In this document: positions 5,223 to 53,977 of the stretch, piece by piece
Layout of the letters: every line of letters starts with the position of its first letter
How positions within the stretch are numbered: position 1 is the stretch's first letter
Source of the DNA: an uncultured delta proteobacterium
Lineage (GTDB): Bacteria; Myxococcota_A; Polyangia; Polyangiales; Polyangiaceae
NCBI GenBank assembly: GCA_963841435.1
Contig: CAWJCS010000002.1
Coordinates: 704,001-768,000 of the forward strand
Direction of reading: 5' to 3'
Length of the DNA: 64,000 bases
Program-made: the position numbers and the translations under genes
The notes under the pieces: model-generated
Database searches by the model: none
Seen by the model: the letters and a program-made list of their open reading frames with translations, nothing else
What the model was told of the DNA's origin: nothing

Positions 5223-7478
<2,256 letters not shown>

Positions 7479-40927: not shown

Positions 40928-42379
40928 CTACTGGACCGGCTTTTCGGCCTGTACTTTTTCGAACAACGCGCGCTCTTCCGGCGTCGCTTCCTCGAGCTCG
41001 GGCGGCTCGGAGAAGCGGTCGAGCTTGCGCTCGAGCGATTTGCGATTCACGCCGAGCAGGCGCGCCGCCGCGCTCTTGTTGCCGCTGCACATCTCGATGG
41101 CGTGGTGCAGGATGGCGCGTTCGATGAGATCGAGCTTCGAGCCGATGCGCGACGGCAGCGCGAGGATGGCGCGCGCCATGCGGTCCACCTCGCGCGCGCC
41201 TTCGGTGAGCTGGCCGCCCACGAGCTCCTCGAGCACGGGCACGTCGACGACTTCCTTTTCGGCGAGCAGCGCGAGGCGCTCGACGCCGTTTTTGAGCTCG
41301 CGCACGTTGCCCGGCCAGCGCCGCCGGCGGATCCATTCGACGGCTTCGTCCGTGAAACGGAGCCTGGGCTGAAACTGCGCCGCGAACGAGTGCAAAAGCT
41401 CGATGACGTCGTCCCCGCGGTCCGCGAGCGAAGGCACGGTCACGGCGACCACGTTGAGGCGGTAGAAGAGATCCTCGCGGAACCGCCCCTCCGCGATGCG
41501 CTTCTCCAGGTCGACGTGGGTCGCGGCGATGACGCGCGCCTTGAGCGGCAGCTCGTCCTCGCCTCCGAGCGGGCGAAAGCGCCGGTCCTCGAGCACGCGC
41601 AAGAGCTTTGCCTGCAGCTCGACGGGCATCTCGGCGATCTCGTCGAGCAGCAGCGTGCCGCTGCCGGCGAGCTCGAGCTGCCCGCGCATGCGCTGCACGG
41701 CTCCGGTGAAGGCGCCGCGCTGGTGGCCGAAGATCAACGATTCGATGAGGTTGCCCGGCAACGCAGAGCAGTTCACGGCCAGAAATGGCTGGCTGCTGCG
41801 GTGGCTCGAGTGGTGGATGGCACGGGCCACCATTTCCTTGCCGCTGCCCGTCTCGCCGAGGATGAGCACGGGTGCTTCCGCGTCCGCGACGCGCGCGACG
41901 AGCTTCATGACGCGCTCCATCGGCGGCGAAGTGCCGATGAGCGCCGCCGGGCCGAAGCTGGTGTCGATGTGTTGCTTGAGCCGCACCACCTCGCTCCGCA
42001 GCTGCAGGCGCTCGCGGATGCCTTCGACGATGGGCAGGAGCATCTCGGGGCCGAGCTCGTCCTTGAGCACGTAGTCCTGAGCGCCCTGGCGCATGGCCTC
42101 GCGGATCTCGGCCAGCTCCGTCGAGGCGGTCACCATGACGGCGGGCGTGGAGCGTCCGCTCTCGCGTAGCCAGCGCAAGAAGGAGAGCCCGCCGCGATCG
42201 GTCGGATTGGGCGACAGCCGGATGTCGACGAGGGCGGCATCCGGATTCTGGCTCTCAACGCGCTCCTTCGCTTCCTCGAGGCTGCCGGCCTCCAGAATCT
42301 CGACGTCCTTGAGCTCGCTAAGCAGGTGGCGGAGCACGCGCCGCGCGCTGCGCTGATCGTCGACGAGGAGGATCTTCAT
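40928..42379 (-). CDS. Sigma54-dependent response regulator (REC-AAA+-Fis HTH, NtrC family)
   Basis: ILLVDD, ALVDIRL, GETGSGKE, GAFTGA, FREDLFYRLNV, WPGNVREL and GNKSAAARLLG. ATGA overlap with the kinase. Confidence 0.95.
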   Translation of the reverse strand: MKILLVDDQRSARRVLRHLLSELKDVEILEAGSLEEAKERVESQNPDAALVDIRLSPNPTDRGGLSFLRWLRESGRSTPAVMVTASTELAEIREAMRQGAQDYVLKDELGPEMLLPIVEGIRERLQLRSEVVRLKQHIDTSFGPAALIGTSPPMERVMKLVARVADAEAPVLILGETGSGKEMVARAIHHSSHRSSQPFLAVNCSALPGNLIESLIFGHQRGAFTGAVQRMRGQLELAGSGTLLLDEIAEMPVELQAKLLRVLEDRRFRPLGGEDELPLKARVIAATHVDLEKRIAEGRFREDLFYRLNVVAVTVPSLADRGDDVIELLHSFAAQFQPRLRFTDEAVEWIRRRRWPGNVRELKNGVERLALLAEKEVVDVPVLEELVGGQLTEGAREVDRMARAILALPSRIGSKLDLIERAILHHAIEMCSGNKSAAARLLGVNRKSLERKLDRFSEPPELEEATPEERALFEKVQAEKPVQ

Positions 42380-44768
42380 GCAACCCTTGCTTCCGAGTCG
42401 GCGGCCGCCTCGTTCGGCGCCTGGCGCGCGCCGTCGCGCACGATGTCCTCACCGCGCACGGTCACGGCGAAGACGGTGCGGCTATCGCGGCGCTGCGCCG
42501 CGATGCTCCAGCCGTGCGCGCGCACGAGCCGGTGCGTGATGGCGAGGCCGAGGCCCGTACCGCGTGGCTTGGTGGTGTACCAGGGCGCGAACAGTCGCGA
42601 CGGGTCGCCCACGTAGCCCGGGCCCTCGTCCCACACCGAAAGCTCCCCGCCGCCGCCCGCCGCGCGCCACGCGATGCCGACGCGCCCATTCGGGCCGCAC
42701 GCCTCGAGCGCGTTGGACATCAAGTTCACGAGCACCTGAGTCATCTTGTCCGGATCGCAGCGCAGGGTCGCGTCCGCTCCGAGTCCGAGCTCGATGTGCC
42801 GGTTGCCGAGTGCATCCCCGAGCAGCGTTTCCACGCGCCCGCAGAGCTCCGACACCGGCGTTGGCGCCCGCTCCAGACGGTGAGCGGCCATGCGCTTCAA
42901 CCCCGAGACCAGCCGCTCCAGACGATCCACTTCTTCTCTGCCCACGTCGATGTCGTCGGCCGTCAACGCCACGCTGCGGGAGCCACGCTCGAAGACGCTC
43001 CTGAAGTAGTTGATGGGGTAGCGCACCTCGTGCGCGATCTCGGCCGCGACCGTCTCGACGAGGGCTTCGCGCTCGCCGCGCCATGCCTCTGCCTGCCGGC
43101 GCCGCCGCTCCTCGAGCTCCTGGTAGGCGTGGGCATGGGCGAGCGCGAGCCCACCGTTGTTGGCGATCGTACGCAAGAGATCGATGTCGTCGCTCGTGAA
43201 GAGCGCGCCGCCCCGCTTCGCTCCCGCGTCGAGCCAACCGAACGGTTTGCCGCCGAAAGTGACCTCGAGCCTGAGCTCGGCGTCGCTCGGGCGCGGCGGC
43301 TCGTCGGTCTCGACGCCGGCGCCGGTCGGGCCCTCGCCCGACGCTGGGCCCTCTGCGTCGGCGACGGTGGACCTCCGCGGTGCCGGCGCGAGCGTGAGGT
43401 GAATGTAGTCGCAGGGCAACCAGCGACGCACGGTGCGCTCGATGGCCTGGGTGACCTCTCTCGGCGAGGTGAGCGTCGTCAGCTCCTCGCTCAGACGGTC
43501 GATCGTGGGTTTGTACTGTGAGCGCGACCGAAACAGCGTGAAGTCGCTGACGCGCAGCGCCGAGACGACGAGCACAGCGGCCGCCACGCCGCCGCCCGCG
43601 GCACCGGCCAGCGCATCACGGAAGCTCGCGCCCATCCACGTCGCGAGCGCACCGCCCACGGCGATGGCGAGTGCGCAGGCGAGCGCGCCGACGAACAGGC
43701 TCGTGCCGACGCGAGACAGCAACGCACGACTGCCCCAAAGGTCATAACGCACGAACGCGTACAGGCTCGCGACCGGCGCGAGTAAAAGCGCGGGGAAGAC
43801 GATGGCGTCGGGAAAGGACTTAAGGAGGCCGAGCGAAGTGAGCACGCCCCAAACAGCGACCCCGGTGTAAGCGGGCACCATCGACAGGAGGAGGGCACGT
43901 AGCGTGTCGCGCTGTTCGCCGCGCGACTGGCCGTAGCGAAAGAGAAACCCCGCCACGAACGCTACGAACGAGAGCCCCAGCAAGAGCGTGACGAGGCTCT
44001 GAATCGGCCCGGTATCGCGCCCGAGCAGGTAGGATCCGGTCAGCGTGAGAGCGAAGCAGAGGGCGATCGCCTGGATCAGCGTACGGGTCCAGGGGTGCTT
44101 CCTCACGACGGCGACCGTCGTCGGCAGCTCCAGAACGAGAAGCACGACCACGAAGGGGAGGATGGCGAAGGCCGAAAAGAAAATCGGCGTCAGCGTTCTG
44201 GTCGTGTGAACGTTGAAGAGTGTGAGCAGGAAAAGTCCGCTCGTGACGCCGAACTTGGCGAACGCCCGTGACAACGCGCCACGCGGTCGCGCCCAGAGTG
44301 CGAGCAGACCCGCGCTAGCGTAGACCACGCCGCTAAAAAGAAAGCTGCCCGCGTAGAGCCACCAGCCGATGGGGGAAAGCGGCTGGAGGGCCAGGCGGAC
44401 GACTTCTTGGTCGAGCTACGCTCGACGACGGCATCGAGGTAGCCGACCTTCGCCGCCTCCACGACGGCGGCATCCCACGCGGTGGCCCGGGCCAGGCTTC
44501 CCGTGACCCCTTCCGCCCCCACGGGCAAGACCCGATCAGGAAATTTCAGGCCCAGTCGTCGTCCCGCCCAGTCGTCGAGGCCTAGGCTGGACACCGAACC
44601 GCCCGGATCGACCAGGACGCCCGGGATCGGACGACCATACCAGGTCAGCGCATCGCGGACGGCAACACAGGTCAGCGCGACCAGGAGGCTCGTGAGCACG
44701 ACGATGGCAAGGGTGACCCGCGGTCCGGCGGCATGGTCGTGATCGGCTTGGGGCACGTTGCCCAGCAT
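42376..44768 (-). CDS. Multi-TM sensor histidine kinase (TM-PDZ-like-9TM-GAF-HisKA-HATPase; ComP-like), one -1 frameshift near 44403
   Basis: Two ORFs (44190-44768 and 42376-44328) join if one G is added (AAG GTC GTC CGC), giving 798 codons. H-box AHEVRYP, N-box VNLMSNALEA, DEGPG and GTGLGLAI. Confidence 0.85.
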
Positions 44769-44815: not shown

Positions 44816-46693
44816 TCAGCCCGATCCGGCTCTCAAAGAGCCCGGGTCGGCCGGTCGCTCTGCCTCGCTGGCCGGGACGACTCCGGAGCGGTGCGCTTGG
44901 GTGTTTGGCGCTCGCCCCCACTCGGCCGCGTCGACGAGCTGCCGGAGGATGGCCTCTTCGAGGGCACCCTCAGCCTCCGCCGACGAGCGGGCGCGCAGCG
45001 CCACCTCGAGGCCCAAGAGAGCCTCCTTTCGCGTGCCGCTCGGGTCCGCGTCGGAAAGGACGCGCAGCAATAGCCCGAGCTGCCGGAGCAGGTGGCCCCG
45101 AGGCTGAACGCCGAGCCGTTCCGGATGCCGCGCCCAGACTCGCGCCGCGCGCAGCATGCTCGCGAGCGCGTGGGCCGCGGTCGAATCGCGCATGATGACG
45201 CAAACCGCAAATTGCCACACCGCCCGCGACGTACCCGGGGCAAGCGGGGCGCCACGCGACGCTTCGACGAAAGCCCGGGCAGCGTGGTGTTCTCCCATGC
45301 GCACGAGTGAGAGGGCCACGGGGTCGGTCGCGGCAAGGCAAGCGGTGGTCGCGCTCAAGCGGCCGTACCCGTGCTTGGCATTGTGGCCGTCGTCATCGCT
45401 GCCCAGGGGCTCGAAGTCGCGGCGATCGGCGAGCCCGTGCTCAAAAGCTCGCCCCGACGGATCGAGAGCAACGCTCGTTTCACGGAGCAAGCAATCCACG
45501 TCGGGCAAAGTGAGCAGCGGATTCGTCGCAAGCAGGAGCAGGAAGACACCACTCGCGACGCCGGACGCGCCGCTGGACTCCGCGTGCCATGCCCGCTCCT
45601 CTTCAGCGAACGGGTAGGCCATGTCGTCGCCCGGAGCGAGGAAGCGCACCGACGGACCGCGATTCGCGAATGGCCTCAGGCGCCCGCGTCGGTCGAGCCA
45701 GAGGAACCAGCCACCGTCGCGGGCGCTCGGCCCGATGCAGAATACGCGAGGATCGGCCGCGGGCTCACCCAGGCCGAGGCTGAGGCTCGAATGGACCGAA
45801 TCGTGTGGGCTCGACATCTCGCGGCCCGTGGGCATCACGACGACGGTGCCGCGTCCGCCGCGCCCAACGCGCACCGCGAGCTCGAGCGCGTCGTCGAGCA
45901 TGGGGCTGGTTTGCCCCTCGACGTACGTCGCGCACACGATGACGTCGGCGCCGTCCTCGACGGCGCGCGCGATGGCGAGCGGTAGCGTCCACACGTCGTT
46001 GCCCGGCTTGGGAATGCAGTAGAAGCGGGGGGACGCGTCGGGAGCGATGCCCGAGAAGCGCTTCCCGTTCGCAGCCGTCGCTCCTACCGCCCAGCCGAGC
46101 ATCAGTGCGGCGTGCGAGTGCGACCGCGGTATCGCAGCGACGGCGACGGGCACCTCCGCCTCGAGCGGGATGCGCTCGAGTTCGAGCCCGTCGTTGTCGA
46201 TCACCGCGAGTCGCGTGCCAGCACCGGTCCCGCAAAAGCGGCGGTTAACGTCCGCACCCTTCGCCCGAAGGAACCAGCGCCAGGGCGTGTCGGCTTCGAC
46301 GAGCTCCGTTGGCCCGCGCGCGGGCCAGTCGCGCGCTTGTCGTCGGGCGCGCGTCACGCAGAAATCGAGGCGCGGGGGAAGGGTCTGCGTGCCGCGCCTC
46401 GCCGAGGTGACGTAGCGCACGCGAGCGGAGCCTAGACGGCGAGATACCTCCCGGCGATCGAGCTTCTTCGAAGACTCGACCCGCGTCCAAAAGATCGGGT
46501 GATTGCTGAACAGGGGCGTCACTGCAACGTCGGGGGCGAGGTCCGAAAGCGCGCGAGTGACCTCCACGGGATCGATGTCCTCGCAGGTCGCAACGACGAG
46601 GTCCTGCTCCGGTTGGCCCTCGTCGCCACCCCCATCGGGATCGGCGCGTAGTCGAAGTCCCAACTCGGGTCCGGGTCCGCCCGCGCCGCTCAC
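44816..46693 (-). CDS. Divergent S8 (subtilisin-like) peptidase, no signal peptide
   Basis: GTGAGTRLAVIDND (Asp), HSHAALM (His), GIAPDA, FANRGP...LAPG, ESSGASGVASG...LLLATNP (Ser) and HGYGRL. GTGA overlap with the upstream gene. Confidence 0.8.
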   Translation of the reverse strand: MSGAGGPGPELGLRLRADPDGGGDEGQPEQDLVVATCEDIDPVEVTRALSDLAPDVAVTPLFSNHPIFWTRVESSKKLDRREVSRRLGSARVRYVTSARRGTQTLPPRLDFCVTRARRQARDWPARGPTELVEADTPWRWFLRAKGADVNRRFCGTGAGTRLAVIDNDGLELERIPLEAEVPVAVAAIPRSHSHAALMLGWAVGATAANGKRFSGIAPDASPRFYCIPKPGNDVWTLPLAIARAVEDGADVIVCATYVEGQTSPMLDDALELAVRVGRGGRGTVVVMPTGREMSSPHDSVHSSLSLGLGEPAADPRVFCIGPSARDGGWFLWLDRRGRLRPFANRGPSVRFLAPGDDMAYPFAEEERAWHAESSGASGVASGVFLLLLATNPLLTLPDVDCLLRETSVALDPSGRAFEHGLADRRDFEPLGSDDDGHNAKHGYGRLSATTACLAATDPVALSLVRMGEHHAARAFVEASRGAPLAPGTSRAVWQFAVCVIMRDSTAAHALASMLRAARVWARHPERLGVQPRGHLLRQLGLLLRVLSDADPSGTRKEALLGLEVALRARSSAEAEGALEEAILRQLVDAAEWGRAPNTQAHRSGVVPASEAERPADPGSLRAGSG

Positions 46694-47655
46694 GTCAGCA
46701 CCTCGGCCGCCCACGAGCCGAGCTTGATGGCGCGCACGACGTACCCGGCGTGGCGATCTTCCAGCGGCAAAAGGGCGTCGAGGCGGACTTGGCGTTGCTC
46801 TGCCCAGCGAGCGAGCGTGTCGGCGCCGAGCGCTCGTGCGTGGCGCCAGGCGGTTCGGTACTGATGCCGTGCGTCCCGCAACATCAGGTACAAGACACGC
46901 ATCCCTAGCACCCGGCGGCGAACGATGTCGGGCTCCGTGGGGCGCTCGTTTTTGGGGTCCTGTTTCACTGCCTCGAGCCGCCGCCTCGCGAGCGATACCG
47001 CCCACGCGCCGCCGCCGCGCCGCCAATCGTCCTCCCAGTCCCCGGCATCGTCCTCGAACTGGAGGCCGAGCCAGACACCCGCGAGCAGGCGGTGGACCTG
47101 CTCGACCTGAATGGGAGAGGCACCCGACGCGCGAGCCAGCGCGAGCGTGGCCGGAAAGCCAACTGCCTGTTTCGCGAGTGAGATGCGCCGATAGTCGCCG
47201 AACGTGACGGCAGCGATGCGACTCAGTAGGGCGTGCTCTTCGAGGATTGCCTCGCTGGTTTCTCGGTCTGCCGCTTCCGCGAGCGCCACGGTGTCCGGGC
47301 ACAGCTCCGCCAACAATCGATCGCGACCGCTCCGGAGCTCGGCAAGGAGCAAGAGCAGCTCCGGGGTGGGACTGATTTGCCGGTCGGCGACGCGGTCCGT
47401 GCCGAATGCTTCGATGACCGACAAGGCGTGTGCAAGCACGGCAAGACGGACGTGCTCGGGGCGCGCCATGGGGAACGCCTCGGCGACCAAGCTCGGCGCC
47501 TCGAGCGTTACCGCGTGGTTGAAGACATCGCTCCAGGCCTTACCGCTGACCGGGGCGAGCCCCAACAAATGCGGAAGGTCGCGGGCAATCCCGCGCAGTG
47601 CAGGAGGTAGCGCATTCGCGTAGCCCGCGTAGAGCGCGTCTATCATGGATGTCAT
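46690..47655 (-). CDS. Class I isoprenoid-synthase-fold protein (ComQ-like peptide prenyltransferase candidate)
   Basis: All-alpha composition, degenerate first Asp motif FGTDRVADRQ, Y-x6-K helix (DYRRISLAKQA) and second Asp-rich motif GLQFEDDAGDWEDD. Confidence 0.7.
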   Translation of the reverse strand: MTSMIDALYAGYANALPPALRGIARDLPHLLGLAPVSGKAWSDVFNHAVTLEAPSLVAEAFPMARPEHVRLAVLAHALSVIEAFGTDRVADRQISPTPELLLLLAELRSGRDRLLAELCPDTVALAEAADRETSEAILEEHALLSRIAAVTFGDYRRISLAKQAVGFPATLALARASGASPIQVEQVHRLLAGVWLGLQFEDDAGDWEDDWRRGGGAWAVSLARRRLEAVKQDPKNERPTEPDIVRRRVLGMRVLYLMLRDARHQYRTAWRHARALGADTLARWAEQRQVRLDALLPLEDRHAGYVVRAIKLGSWAAEVLT

Positions 47656-47715: not shown

Positions 47716-48036
47716 TCAGTAGCCGTTCGACTCCTTCCAGGGAGAGATCGCGACGTTGATCCGCTCGTTGACGACGATGCTCCGCCAGAGAACCACCTGG
47801 GCGGCGCTGAGCTCCTCGAAGTCACCGCAGACCCAGTCCGTGATGCGGGCGTTCAATTGCGCGCGCACGCGACGTGCGTCGTCGTTCTCTTCGGTGGCGT
47901 CTTCGGTCGTAGGATAAAGAGCGAGCAGCTGCTTGAATTCGTCGAAGCGGTTCTGATCTTCCAAAAGTGAAATGTAGAGGCGGCGAAGCTGAGCGTGGGG
48001 GTCGGTGGCGTGCATTTGGGTAGCGACGGCGGTCAT
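47716..48036 (-). CDS. Small protein, putative RiPP/pheromone precursor (106 aa)
   Basis: Strong AAGGAG ribosome-binding site, first gene of the operon, helical acidic leader-like region, C-terminus ...NVAISPWKESNGY. Confidence 0.7.
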   Translation of the reverse strand: MTAVATQMHATDPHAQLRRLYISLLEDQNRFDEFKQLLALYPTTEDATEENDDARRVRAQLNARITDWVCGDFEELSAAQVVLWRSIVVNERINVAISPWKESNGY

Positions 48037-48097
48037 TGGGTGGTTTTTCTCCTTGATGCATGCGGGTGAGAGCCCGCACTGCTGGCCCCCCCAGACG

Positions 48098-48114
48098 TGC
48101 AAGGATCGTGCACA
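48098..48114 (-). promoter_or_regulatory. Sigma54-like promoter of the precursor operon
   Basis: Minus strand TGTGCACG-ATCC-TTGCA. It matches GCACG-N4-TTGCA but has TG instead of the conserved GG. Confidence 0.45.
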
Positions 48115-48267: not shown

Positions 48268-48576
48268 ATGCCCGTCCTGTTGTTCGTCTACGGATCCCTC
48301 ATGCGTGGGGGGAAACATCACGCCGAGCTCGCCGATGCGCGTTTCGTCGGGCCAGCTGCGACCGAGCGCCGTTGCGGCGTCGTGCGGGTCGCGGAGTATC
48401 CGGCGCTCGTGCCCGGAAACGACGTAGTCCCCGGAGAGCTCTACGAAATCGACGAGACGAGCTTGCTCGCGCTCGATGCTTTCGAGGGCGAAATGTACCG
48501 TCGCGACACCGTAGCGCTCGACGACGGCCGCGTGGTGCTGGCCTATGTTCTCGCCGCCGCCGCGGGGCCGTATTAG
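48268..48576 (+). CDS. Gamma-glutamylcyclotransferase (AIG2-like) family protein
   Basis: [20 protein letters not shown] and LDAFEG. Confidence 0.88.
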
Positions 48577-48586
48577 GCCCTCACCC

Positions 48587-49439
48587 ATGAGGCTGATTCG
48601 CTTCGGCGCTCCCGGTAACGAGCGTCCCGGCGTGCTCGTTGGGGGCGATCGGCGCGACGTTTCCGAGGTATTTCGCGACTGGGATCGCGACTTCTTCGAG
48701 AGCGACGGGCTTGCGCAACTTGCGCAGCTTCTCGCACGCAGCGTCGCGACGTTGCCCGTCGTCGATGCGTCCGAGCGCTGGGCGTCGTGCGTGGCGCGAC
48801 CCGGCAAGGTGCTCTGCATCGGGCTCAACTATCGCGACCACGCGCGCGAGTCGGGTGCGGAGCTTCCCAAGGAGCCGGTGCTGTTCCTCAAGGCCGCCAA
48901 CACCGTCGTCGGTCCGTACGACGACGTTCAGGATTCCGCGCAGCAGCGCGAAGACGGATTGGGAGGTCGAGCTCGGCGTCGTCGTCGGCAAGCGTGCTCG
49001 CTACGTGCCTTCGGCGAGCGCGGCCCTCGAGCACGTCGCAGGCTACACGATCTCGCACGATGTCTCCGAGCGCGAGTTCCAGCTCGAGCGCGGTGGGCAG
49101 TGGACGAAGGGGAAGTCGTGCGACACCTTCAATCCGCTCGGGCCGTACCTGGCCACGCCTGACGAGGTGGGCGATCCTCAGGCTCTCGCGCTCGGTCTCG
49201 ACGTGAACGGCGTGCGCCGCCAGTCCGGAAATACGCGGGATATGGCGTTCGGGGTGGCCGAAATCGTTCGCTACGTGTCCGAGTTCATGACGCTCGAGGG
49301 CGGCGACGTCATCAGCACGGGGACGCCGGCGGGCGTCGGGCTCGGCATGAAGCCGCCCGTCTACCTGAAGAACGGCGACGTGTGCGAGCTGTTCGTGGAA
49401 AAGCTCGGCACCCAGCGCCAAACGTTTCGGAGCGAGTGA
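48587..49439 (+). CDS. Fumarylacetoacetate hydrolase family protein, +1 frameshift near 48931
   Basis: [17 protein letters not shown], then [25 protein letters not shown] and TGTPAGVG. Removing one G (CAG G ATT) restores 284 codons. Confidence 0.9.
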
Positions 49440-52819: not shown

Positions 52820-53977
52820 TTGCATAAACCCGTGCAACAAGACCCCCGACAGGCAAGGCGGCTGCGGGTGCGGGTGGCACTCGTCGCTGTCGTCGCGTTC
52901 GTTGGCTGCAACGTCTACGACTCCTCCCTGCTGACCGGGCAGGAATGGGGCGTCGCGGCCGGCGTGGGCGGTAGCGCGGGAGTTTCGGGCCTGGGGCAAG
53001 GGGGCGGGACCAGCGGCAGCGGGGGCAGCGGCGGCTCGGGCCTGACGGGCGGCTCGTCGGGCCGTGGTGGTGGTGGTGGTGGTGGAAATGGGGGCTCGAA
53101 CGGGGGCACCGGCGCGCTCGAGGGCGGCGCCATGGGCGAGGGGGGCCAGGGCGACACGGGCAGCGGCGGAACCACCGCCGGGGCGACGGGTGACGGCGGC
53201 ACGACCGGGGGCGCAAGCGGCGATGCCGGAACCGCCGGTGCGGGCGGAAGTAGCGGCAAGGGCGGCTCTTCGGGGGCGGGCGGCACCAGCGGCACCAGCG
53301 GCACCAGCGGCACCAGCGGCACCAGCGGCACCAGCGGCACCAGCGGCACCAGCGGCACCAGCGGCACCAGCGGCACCGCGGGTGCGGGCGGCACGAGCGG
53401 CGCGGGCAGCGGCGGTGGTGGCACGGGCGGCGGCGCCGAAACGTGCACGGGCTGCGCTCGGCTCTCGGTCCCGCTCGCCGCGACCGGCGACCATGCTCAC
53501 TACGTCTTGGCGCTGCCCTCGACGACGAATCTTGCCGCCGCCACGATCACCGTGCGCTTCGTGAGGTTCAAGGGTACCGGCGGTCGCGTCAGGTTCTACG
53601 TCCAGCACGGGGGCAGCCCCGACTACAGCTGGGATTTGGGTCCCGAGACGCCCATCGCCAACATCGCGACGAGCGGGACCAACGTCGCGTGGGACATCGC
53701 GAGCACGTCGAGCACGTTCGACCGCACGGTCATCGCGCGGATCGGGATCGAGGTGAACGGTGCGAGCGCGACCGCGTGGACCAATCCGACGGTGCTCTAC
53801 GTCGATCGCATCGACGTGTCCGGGGCTAGCCCCGCCCTGGCCGCTTCGACCTTCGACGCCGCCTCGTCGGTGGACACGACGCCGACGAGCAGCGGCCCGA
53901 CGGGCCCGCTCTGGCTCAACAGCTACAGCGGCGACACCAACGTCACGGGCGCCGCGCTCGGCTGGCTCGGGCCCTGA
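52820..53977 (+). CDS. Gly-rich-linker lipoprotein with C-terminal carbohydrate-binding-like beta-sandwich
   Basis: Lipobox FVGC (CNVYDSSLL), long G/S/T linker, then a beta-rich domain with RIGIEV and LYVDRI. Start uncertain. Confidence 0.7.
   Translation: MHKPVQQDPRQARRLRVRVALVAVVAFVGCNVYDSSLLTGQEWGVAAGVGGSAGVSGLGQGGGTSGSGGSGGSGLTGGSSGRGGGGGGGNGGSNGGTGALEGGAMGEGGQGDTGSGGTTAGATGDGGTTGGASGDAGTAGAGGSSGKGGSSGAGGTSGTSGTSGTSGTSGTSGTSGTSGTSGTSGTAGAGGTSGAGSGGGGTGGGAETCTGCARLSVPLAATGDHAHYVLALPSTTNLAAATITVRFVRFKGTGGRVRFYVQHGGSPDYSWDLGPETPIANIATSGTNVAWDIASTSSTFDRTVIARIGIEVNGASATAWTNPTVLYVDRIDVSGASPALAASTFDAASSVDTTPTSSGPTGPLWLNSYSGDTNVTGAALGWLGP
53282..53377 (+). repeat. (GGCACCAGC)x10.7 in-frame tandem repeat encoding (GTS)10
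   Basis: Ten perfect 9-bp copies plus GGCACC. Confidence 0.92.

Follow-up and report, generated by a model that had tools for sequence, protein, structure and literature searches.

A small protein encoded next to a synthase-fold protein in a Polyangiaceae genome, a possible precursor of a modified peptide signal

Bacillus, Paenibacillus, and Sphaerobacter are the only genera for which the literature consulted describes peptide signals that carry a prenylated Trp. In the ComQXPA system, ComP and ComA are a histidine kinase with multiple transmembrane (TM) helices and a response regulator, respectively. In Paenibacillus alvei, the PalP-PalX-PalQ cluster was reported to encode a histidine kinase, a precursor of the NHLP type whose C-terminal Trp is conserved, and an enzyme of the isoprene synthase superfamily; PalQ belongs to no established subfamily, was found through an AlphaFold complex, and prenylates the terminal Trp (PMC10853753). 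StheQ from Sphaerobacter tightly binds the 69-amino-acid StheX, of which residues 1–59 are ordered and the last ten disordered (10.64898/2026.08.29.745113). According to a further account, Trp is the target of every characterized prenyltransferase resembling trans-isoprenyl diphosphate synthases (trans-IDSs), and these enzymes have in common a Gln that shortly precedes the second Asp-rich motif (PMC13290415). A role in reading the indole NH has been proposed for this Gln, which lies one turn ahead of the second or a pseudo-second motif. Here, we describe a module on the minus strand of a 64,000-nucleotide stretch of DNA, referred to as the window, from an uncultured delta proteobacterium of the Polyangiaceae (GenBank assembly GCA_963841435.1, contig CAWJCS010000002.1, positions 704,001 to 768,000 of the forward strand; coordinates below are those of the window). 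In this module, the gene of a 106-amino-acid protein precedes that of p321, a protein with the modeled fold of trans-IDSs. It is quite possible, if short of probable, that the 106-amino-acid protein gives rise to a modified peptide signal in the manner of the precursors ComX and PalX. An earlier note, made from the DNA letters, had interpreted it as a leader/core-like precursor with W100 as the best target of modification, and this interpretation is partly supported by the analysis. A search of a limited collection of literature found no publication on the module.

The module resembles PalPXQ in combining a kinase, a candidate precursor whose large N-terminal domain and C-terminal aromatic residue are conserved, a protein of the isoprene synthase superfamily outside its established subfamilies, and a predicted complex of the latter two. 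It differs in its Gram-negative myxobacterial host and in the additional S8 protease and NtrC-type regulator. PalQ was reported to need a terminal Trp, whereas here the Trp lies at position −7 and the proteins of the main clade end with Tyr. With ComQXPA and StheQX, the module shares a trans-IDS-fold protein encoded beside a small ORF (open reading frame), whose product has an ordered N-terminal part and a flexible tail with a Trp near the end; as in ComQXPA, a multi-TM kinase and a response regulator are also present. The regulator found here is, in contrast to that of ComQXPA, sigma-54-dependent, and p321 differs from ComQ in having no sequence-family match. In StheQX, stheX lies downstream of stheQ, whereas the small gene comes first here and its product is longer (106 versus 69 amino acids).

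The small protein and its synthase-fold neighbor

The small gene was found on the minus strand at 47716..48036 (stop codon included); the earlier note had given this position and no strand. It encodes a protein of 106 amino acids (P0001) from an unnamed family, whose C-terminal end reads ...VAISPWKESNGY. Further elements named in the note were confirmed: an AAGGAG ribosome-binding site is located 12 nt 5′ of the ATG (48049..48054, minus strand), Trp residues are present at positions 68, 84, and 100 with W100 at −7 from the end, Tyr is the last residue, and the gene is the first of its operon. This operon is a co-directional run of the small gene, the p321 gene, an S8-like gene, a histidine kinase gene, and the gene of an NtrC-type regulator. 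The ORF is a real gene rather than a chance ORF, because it has 347 homologues (of 354 candidates, at E ≤ 0.01), because 33 aligned close relatives are 63–86% identical with conservation spanning the whole length, and because its gene order recurs. The homologues are all unnamed or annotated as "hypothetical," and several stem from Polyangiaceae metagenome-assembled genomes. A profile search of 1.84 billion representatives yielded 73 clusters related to the small protein at E ≤ 0.001.

The AlphaFold2 (AF2) model of the small protein comprised four main helices and a low-confidence end (mean predicted local distance difference test score [pLDDT] 69). From this model and from the conservation in 45 distant members, a conserved helical, leader-like N-domain was delimited to residues 12–92 (47761..48003, minus strand). 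The core-like C-terminal tail of residues 93–106 (INVAISPWKESNGY; 47719..47760, minus strand) showed pLDDT values down to 61 and then 44. In the 33 close relatives, the tail residues N94, S98, P99, W100, E102, N104, and Y106 are invariant, and position 105 accepts almost any residue. The N-domain of approximately 90 residues is retained across the 45 distant members while their tails diverge: some carry a Trp near the end, some end with Cys, and some show neither. The leader/core layout put forward in the note is supported by this ordered N-domain with a low-confidence tail that is swapped in distant relatives. Cys is the last residue in six of 43 distant representatives (P0262, P0273, P0274, P0276, P0279, and P0284).

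Kinship to ComX, Nif11, and NHLP leaders, as suggested in the earlier note, found no backing: none of the 45 family members matched any Pfam or NCBIfam model at E ≤ 1, including those of NHLP, Nif11, and ComX, which these libraries presumably contain. The small protein differs in this respect from PalX with its NHLP leader. A fold search with the small-protein model gave no solved match (best Foldseek E value 2.3; best VIA wide Z score 4.9), and a search of the ESM Atlas gave nothing above 0.80. A reading of the four-helix protein as a histidine-phosphotransfer (Hpt)-like protein was rejected, since H14 is invariant in close relatives and missing from several distant ones. Apparent fusions (P0292, P0296, P0312, P0313, P0290, and P0304) were also discarded; they look like repeats, chimeras, or frameshifted calls.

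The second gene of the run (46690..47655, minus strand) encodes p321 (P0002), a 321-amino-acid protein that was assigned as a divergent trans-IDS-fold protein and candidate prenyltransferase from its AF2 model, Foldseek and VIA comparisons, and sequence motifs. The model was confident (pLDDT 91.8). Foldseek gave 32 matches in the PDB at E ≤ 1e-3, and all matches listed were polyprenyl synthases or Ord1. The latter, a Trp prenyltransferase, was aligned by VIA over 260 residues (Z 19.6, root mean square deviation [rmsd] 3.0); for p321, VIA gave Z 23.3 over 270 aligned residues (rmsd 2.7). As modeled, p321 has the all-α trans-IDS fold that ComQ-type enzymes also have; this fold and a conserved QxxDDxxD motif lend support to the transferase to which the note had referred. 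Searching proteins once more with the p321 profile did not bring up relatives that were more distant or annotated.

The QxxDDxxD motif is the canonical second Asp-rich motif; among 80 loci, Q199 is kept in 77, D202 in 79, and D203 and D206 in 80, as is K162 in 80. At the place of the first Asp-rich motif, judged from sequence position, p321 has DRxxD (D87 in 72, R88 in 80, and D91 in 76 of the loci); H76 (80) and an acidic residue at position 82 (77) are kept as well. In a weak hhalign comparison (probability 3.9%, E 0.011), QFEDDAxD of p321 was paired with FQLVDDVLD of the genome's own polyprenyl synthase, and Y155...K162 with Y...KT of the same protein. As in PalQ, a Gln lies three residues ahead of the second motif (Q199/D202/D206 in p321; Q197/D200/D204 in PalQ), and ComQ and StheQ likewise have a Gln one helical turn ahead of it. 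Q199 is nevertheless not discriminating, because canonical synthases also possess this Gln. In ComQ-type enzymes, the first motif is reported to be conserved (DExxD in StheQ) and the second to be a pseudo-motif, NDxxD, whereas in p321 the situation is reversed with DRxxD and a canonical QxxDDxxD. The first-motif Asp pairs that bind the Mg2+-prenyl diphosphate are reported as D85/D89 for StheQ and D89/D93 for PalQ; D87/D91 of p321 have the same D...D spacing, the equivalence being one of position in the sequence.

The structural alignments of p321 to synthases stop at residues 288–301, mostly at 291–295. Hence, the synthase fold is extended in p321 by a C-terminal helix of approximately residues 297–321 (46693..46767, minus strand), whose sequence is strongly conserved. 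Complex prediction for p321 with the small protein gave values of 0.74, 0.74, and 0.77 for the interaction prediction score from aligned errors (ipSAE), whereas none of three controls exceeded 0.00; the runs shared at least 62% of their contacts, with a partner pLDDT of at least 73. In a benchmark, which is rough since own alignments were used, 116 of 157 solved complexes attained this level, versus 2 of 215 mismatched pairs. The confident interface involves residues 14–35 and 83–92 of the small protein and residues 246, 250, and 298–320 of p321, with the confident contacts on the added helix at 298, 301–305, and 308–320. The prediction supports a docking of the N-domain on this helix, which we regard as the predicted docking site from the structural alignments, contacts, and conservation.

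Protease, kinase, regulator, and promoter

The S8 (subtilisin-like) peptidase gene (44816..46663, minus strand; approximately 615 amino acids) was assigned from weak model matches, the start of homology, and a catalytic triad recognized by eye. The matches were below the cut-offs of the models (PF00082, E 0.0016, 18.3 versus 21.8 bits; TIGR03921, E 4.7e-8, 32.5 versus 278.75 bits). The listed 828-amino-acid ORF (44816–47302, minus strand) is over-extended, with an overlap into the p321 gene; relatives align with it from around its residue 230 onward, and the gene probably starts at around 46663 (TTG). In 15 aligned S8-like sequences, the Asp (xVIDxD), His, and Ser (ESSGAS) positions, assigned by eye, are conserved. 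The N-termini of these 15 proteins are non-hydrophobic with no signal peptide seen by eye, so the S8-like proteins are probably cytoplasmic. They carry an N-terminal domain of their own, by visual judgment a prodomain candidate, and a long helical C-terminal extension.

The leaders of class I lanthipeptides are usually removed by S8 proteases of the LanP type. The present locus is comparable in that a subtilisin-family protease is encoded beside the candidate precursor and modifying enzyme; it differs from LanP loci in the very weak S8 model match and the long helical C-terminal extension.

The histidine kinase gene (42376..44768, minus strand), delimited by domain search, hydropathy, and relatives, is split over two frames in the window; all kinases of relatives that were examined are encoded in one continuous frame of approximately 750–800 amino acids. 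The protein is composed of an N-terminal TM helix, a PDZ-like domain of approximately 100 amino acids, about nine further hydrophobic segments, and GAF-like, HisKA, and HATPase domains; a crude hydropathy scan, on which this topology is based, gave about ten hydrophobic segments in all. The outer domain of approximately 100 amino acids was weakly matched by PF17820 in three of ten members (best E 0.063), and 20 of the 22 matches of its profile to PDB sequences at E ≤ 10 were PDZ domains, again weakly (best E 0.045). The last gene of the run (40928..42379, minus strand) encodes an NtrC-type response regulator with a receiver domain (PF00072), a sigma-54 activator AAA+ domain (PF00158, E 2.3e-66), and a Fis-type helix-turn-helix domain (PF02954).

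Approximately 63 nt upstream of the ATG of the small gene, a −24/−12-like element of the sigma-54 type, xGCACG-N4-TTGCA, was read directly from the sequence (48097..48113, minus strand). The pattern GC-N-Y-G-N5-TGC was found 50–90 nt before the start in 58 of 65 unique upstream regions of the small gene, whereas base-shuffled controls averaged 1.4 and did not exceed 6; three outliers among the positions lay at −96 to −116. The base following TGC, left free by the pattern, is A or T in 57 of the 58 regions, and the canonical GG is present in 21 of them; the element of the window lacks the first G. The element agrees with the sigma-54 −24/−12 consensus and would act as a sigma-54-like promoter. 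A promoter loop is supported by the occurrence of this element in 58 of 65 regions together with a sigma-54 activator encoded in the operon.

Distribution and locus architectures

The small gene was detected in five of 201 sampled genomes of the order to which the window belongs, all from one family, and in three of 401 genomes of a phylum sample. A scan of species genomes with the alignment of relatives revealed 27 loci, about 19 of them in Sorangium genomes including S. cellulosum So ce56, So0157-2, and So ce26, and p321 follows the small gene in all 27. The order small gene, p321, S8, kinase, and regulator is kept in all four other genomes of the family and in most of 75 metagenome loci. 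The window, the four genomes, and the 75 metagenome loci together gave 71 unique complete small ORFs, and the 64 loci with at least 450 nt downstream were taken as informative; counts of loci carry phylogenetic non-independence. The small ORFs of the metagenome loci L061, L082, L085, and L087 look frameshifted or truncated and could be assembly errors or broken copies.

p321 adjoins the small gene in 53 of the 64 informative loci, 52 of them detected by tblastn and one, L087, by a hidden Markov model (HMM) only. Where the small ORF is intact and linked to p321 (50 unique loci), its product always has a Trp within the last 12 residues, which in the tails listed occupies the position equivalent to W100. 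The divergent tail of the p321-linked locus L072, ...ATWNGFGVY, also shows W at −7 and a terminal Y.

Four architectures were distinguished. The majority of loci (architecture A) have the full order of the window, with tails ending in ...SNxY. Architecture B, represented by L049, L067, L052, and L068, comprises the small gene, p321, kinase, and regulator without S8; the tails end in ...WKE[AT]N in L049 and L067 and in ...SNVW in L052 and L068. L049 and L067 also stand out by the substitutions Q199K and D91E in p321; with their S8 gene missing and their tail shortened by two residues, they may represent a module in decay or one that has been rewired. In architecture C, found at nine loci with tails of the form SPW[KR]E[ST]SVW, the small gene is followed by kinase and regulator without p321 and S8; Leu replaces W100 in two of the nine. 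The sole example of architecture D, L013, consists of the small gene and S8, with a tail lacking Trp. Genes flanking the module are conserved in the closest relatives only.

Weighing of the explanations

Of the explanations considered, a peptide precursor accounts for the largest share of the findings, because the gene order, the docking helix, and the invariant disordered tail fit with it, and because Trp is kept wherever p321 is present, distant tails turn over, and a protease is encoded. From these we infer a course of catalysis, residue modification, cleavage, export, sensing, and feedback as follows. The helical N-domain (residues ~12–92) would dock on the family-specific C-terminal helix of p321 and so expose the flexible tail (...SPWKESNxY) to modification. 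By analogy to ComQ/ComX, PalQ/PalX, and StheQ/StheX, the likeliest modification would be a prenylation of W100. The cytoplasmic S8 peptidase would then trim the small protein or release the tail, and the co-encoded multi-TM histidine kinase would respond to this product or to the small protein's state. Its NtrC-type partner would activate the sigma-54-like promoter before the small gene and close a positive loop.

A number of observations weigh against a peptide precursor, the main problem being architecture C, in which the small protein with N-domain and tail occurs with kinase and regulator only. The earlier note had counted homologues unlinked to the transferase as evidence against a precursor; the linkage holds for the 53 loci mentioned, but 11 of the 64 informative loci keep the small gene without an adjacent p321. 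In nine of the 11, the kinase gene comes straight after the small gene, and four of these nine also show the regulator within the locus DNA examined; the kinase-linked loci retain the N-domain and a near-identical tail. In the locus DNA examined around the p321-less small genes, no p321-like sequence and no look-alike of the C-terminal helix was found. Either the modifying genes lie elsewhere in those genomes, or the primary role of the small protein lies in the two-component system, with p321 and S8 as accessories.

The tail itself raises a second difficulty. The note had asked whether W100 is invariant within a variable tail and had named uniform conservation as a sign against a precursor. 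W100 and Y106 proved invariant in the 33 relatives, but in the main clade conservation is uniform and even highest in the tail (...SPWKESNxY), which is the best-conserved stretch of the 33 aligned sequences; in this, with a tail conserved at least as well as the N-domain, the small protein is unlike the ComX pherotypes. According to the published accounts, the Trp is the third residue from the end in ComX of strain 168, the second in StheX, and the last in PalX, whereas it is seven residues from the end here, further than in ComX as the note had said. Of the complex with the transferase that the note had anticipated, the binding of the N-domain to p321 was predicted, but no tail residue, W100 included, was among the confident p321 contacts or confidently placed in the pocket. 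No signal peptide was found on the small protein, and no conserved transporter or exporter among the genes flanking the module.

Further points concern the partners. No Pfam or NCBIfam family matched p321 at E ≤ 1, the p321 relatives listed showed no Pfam domains, and the p321 profile gave nothing significant among PDB sequences, only a geranylgeranyl diphosphate synthase at E 1.1; in its first Asp-rich motif, the second acidic position is taken by a non-canonical Arg. In the window, alignment with the kinase of the related locus L036 revealed an apparent frameshift at 44409..44424 (minus strand): residues 126–220 of the L036 protein align at 44705–44424 (frame −2) and residues 226–902 at 44409–42379 (frame −1). 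This frameshift, either a sequencing error or a real break, separates the N-terminal TM helix and the PDZ-like part from the rest of the kinase. L068 and L052 have a short kinase (455 amino acids at 6068–7435 in L068) with two TM helices and without the PDZ-like and multi-TM part.

Somewhat unlikely, and the best surviving alternative, is that the small protein is a folded cytoplasmic accessory of the kinase/NtrC-type pair, such as an adaptor, inhibitor, or co-sensor. Its tail would then be a protein-binding motif, and p321 and S8 would be optional, tuning or degrading the small protein. Because the p321-less loci keep the small gene beside the kinase, kinase and regulator appear as its constant partners; the small gene, kinase, and regulator run through the architectures while p321 and S8 vary independently (both in A, p321 in B, neither in C, and S8 in D). 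The strong, uniform conservation over the full length including the tail, the missing signal peptide and exporter, and the retention of p321-contacting residues where p321 is absent (L050 sequence in comparison to the predicted interface) all favor such an accessory, and the two-TM kinases of L068 and L052, which lack an outer domain, suggest that sensing would be cytoplasmic or intramembrane there. However, an accessory role leaves unexplained why a synthase-fold p321 with an intact QxxDDxxD, K162, DRxxD, and a docking helix is present in 53 of the 64 loci, and why the tail, but not the N-domain, is exchanged in distant relatives. There is also no fold or family tie to a known kinase regulator (best Z 4.9).

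Improbable is a role of the small protein as a non-catalytic subunit of p321, as in heteromeric hexaprenyl and heptaprenyl diphosphate synthases, with an isoprenoid product that is sensed by the kinase in the membrane. The arrangement is similar to these enzymes insofar as a synthase-fold large subunit and a small helical partner are encoded adjacently. Stable binding is predicted, heterodimeric synthases are among the fold neighbors of p321 (3aqb_B, Z 21.4; 9kp1_B, Z 19.5), and the kinase has about ten hydrophobic segments. The dimer of heteromeric synthases is formed by central helices, whereas the interface predicted here lies on the added C-terminal helix (residues 298–320). Moreover, the partner has an invariant disordered tail, which this role leaves unexplained together with the S8 protease; it persists without p321 in 11 of the 64 informative loci, and the first Asp-rich motif of p321 is non-canonical. 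The possibility that the tail serves the S8 protease as an inhibitor or substrate handle, much like a propeptide acting in trans, with the signaling link reflecting co-regulation only, is the least probable, as the S8 gene directly following the small gene without p321 in L013 and the cytoplasmic S8 protein with its triad kept (by eye) are outweighed by the tail being kept in architectures B and C without S8 and by the N-terminal domain of the S8 proteins, which by eye could be a prodomain of their own.

Returning to the peptide precursor, a more detailed version is doubtful, namely that the module is a myxobacterial counterpart of ComQXPA and PalPXQ built from unrelated parts, with the PDZ-like outer domain of the kinase reading the free C-terminal end of the released peptide. 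It would comprise a new leader family of approximately 90 amino acids, a new clade of trans-IDS-like Trp prenyltransferases that recruit their substrate via the added helix, a cytoplasmic S8 leader peptidase, a kinase of approximately ten TM helices with a periplasmic PDZ-like domain, and an NtrC-type regulator closing a sigma-54 autoinduction loop. The tails follow the motif [ST]-[NS]-x-[YW]-COOH, in which positions −2 and 0 are invariant and −1 is free; a freely varying position −1 is also typical of PDZ ligands. The suggested recognition by the PDZ-like domain draws on weak domain signals and on these general rules for PDZ ligands.

If the small protein is a precursor, signaling by prenyl-Trp peptides would extend to the myxobacteria, social Gram-negative bacteria in which peptide signaling is poorly understood, and the module would supply a new leader family and a new prenyltransferase clade possibly useful for peptide lipidation. 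It is directly testable, since the module occurs in cultured Sorangium strains such as So ce56. Even if the small protein is no precursor, its conserved grouping with a kinase and a sigma-54 activator, together with its invariant C-terminal motif, is a signaling arrangement without prior description.

Two further regions of the window were recorded. Upstream of the module, the plus strand at 48268–49439 carries a divergently oriented gamma-glutamyl cyclotransferase-like gene (PF06094, E 5e-21) and an ORF at 48639–49439; their position beside the module is conserved in just the three closest loci (L036, L049, and L067), and they are probably not part of it. The product of another plus-strand ORF from the ORF list (52820–53977) contains a long Gly/Ser/Thr-rich stretch that includes approximately nine tandem GTS units.

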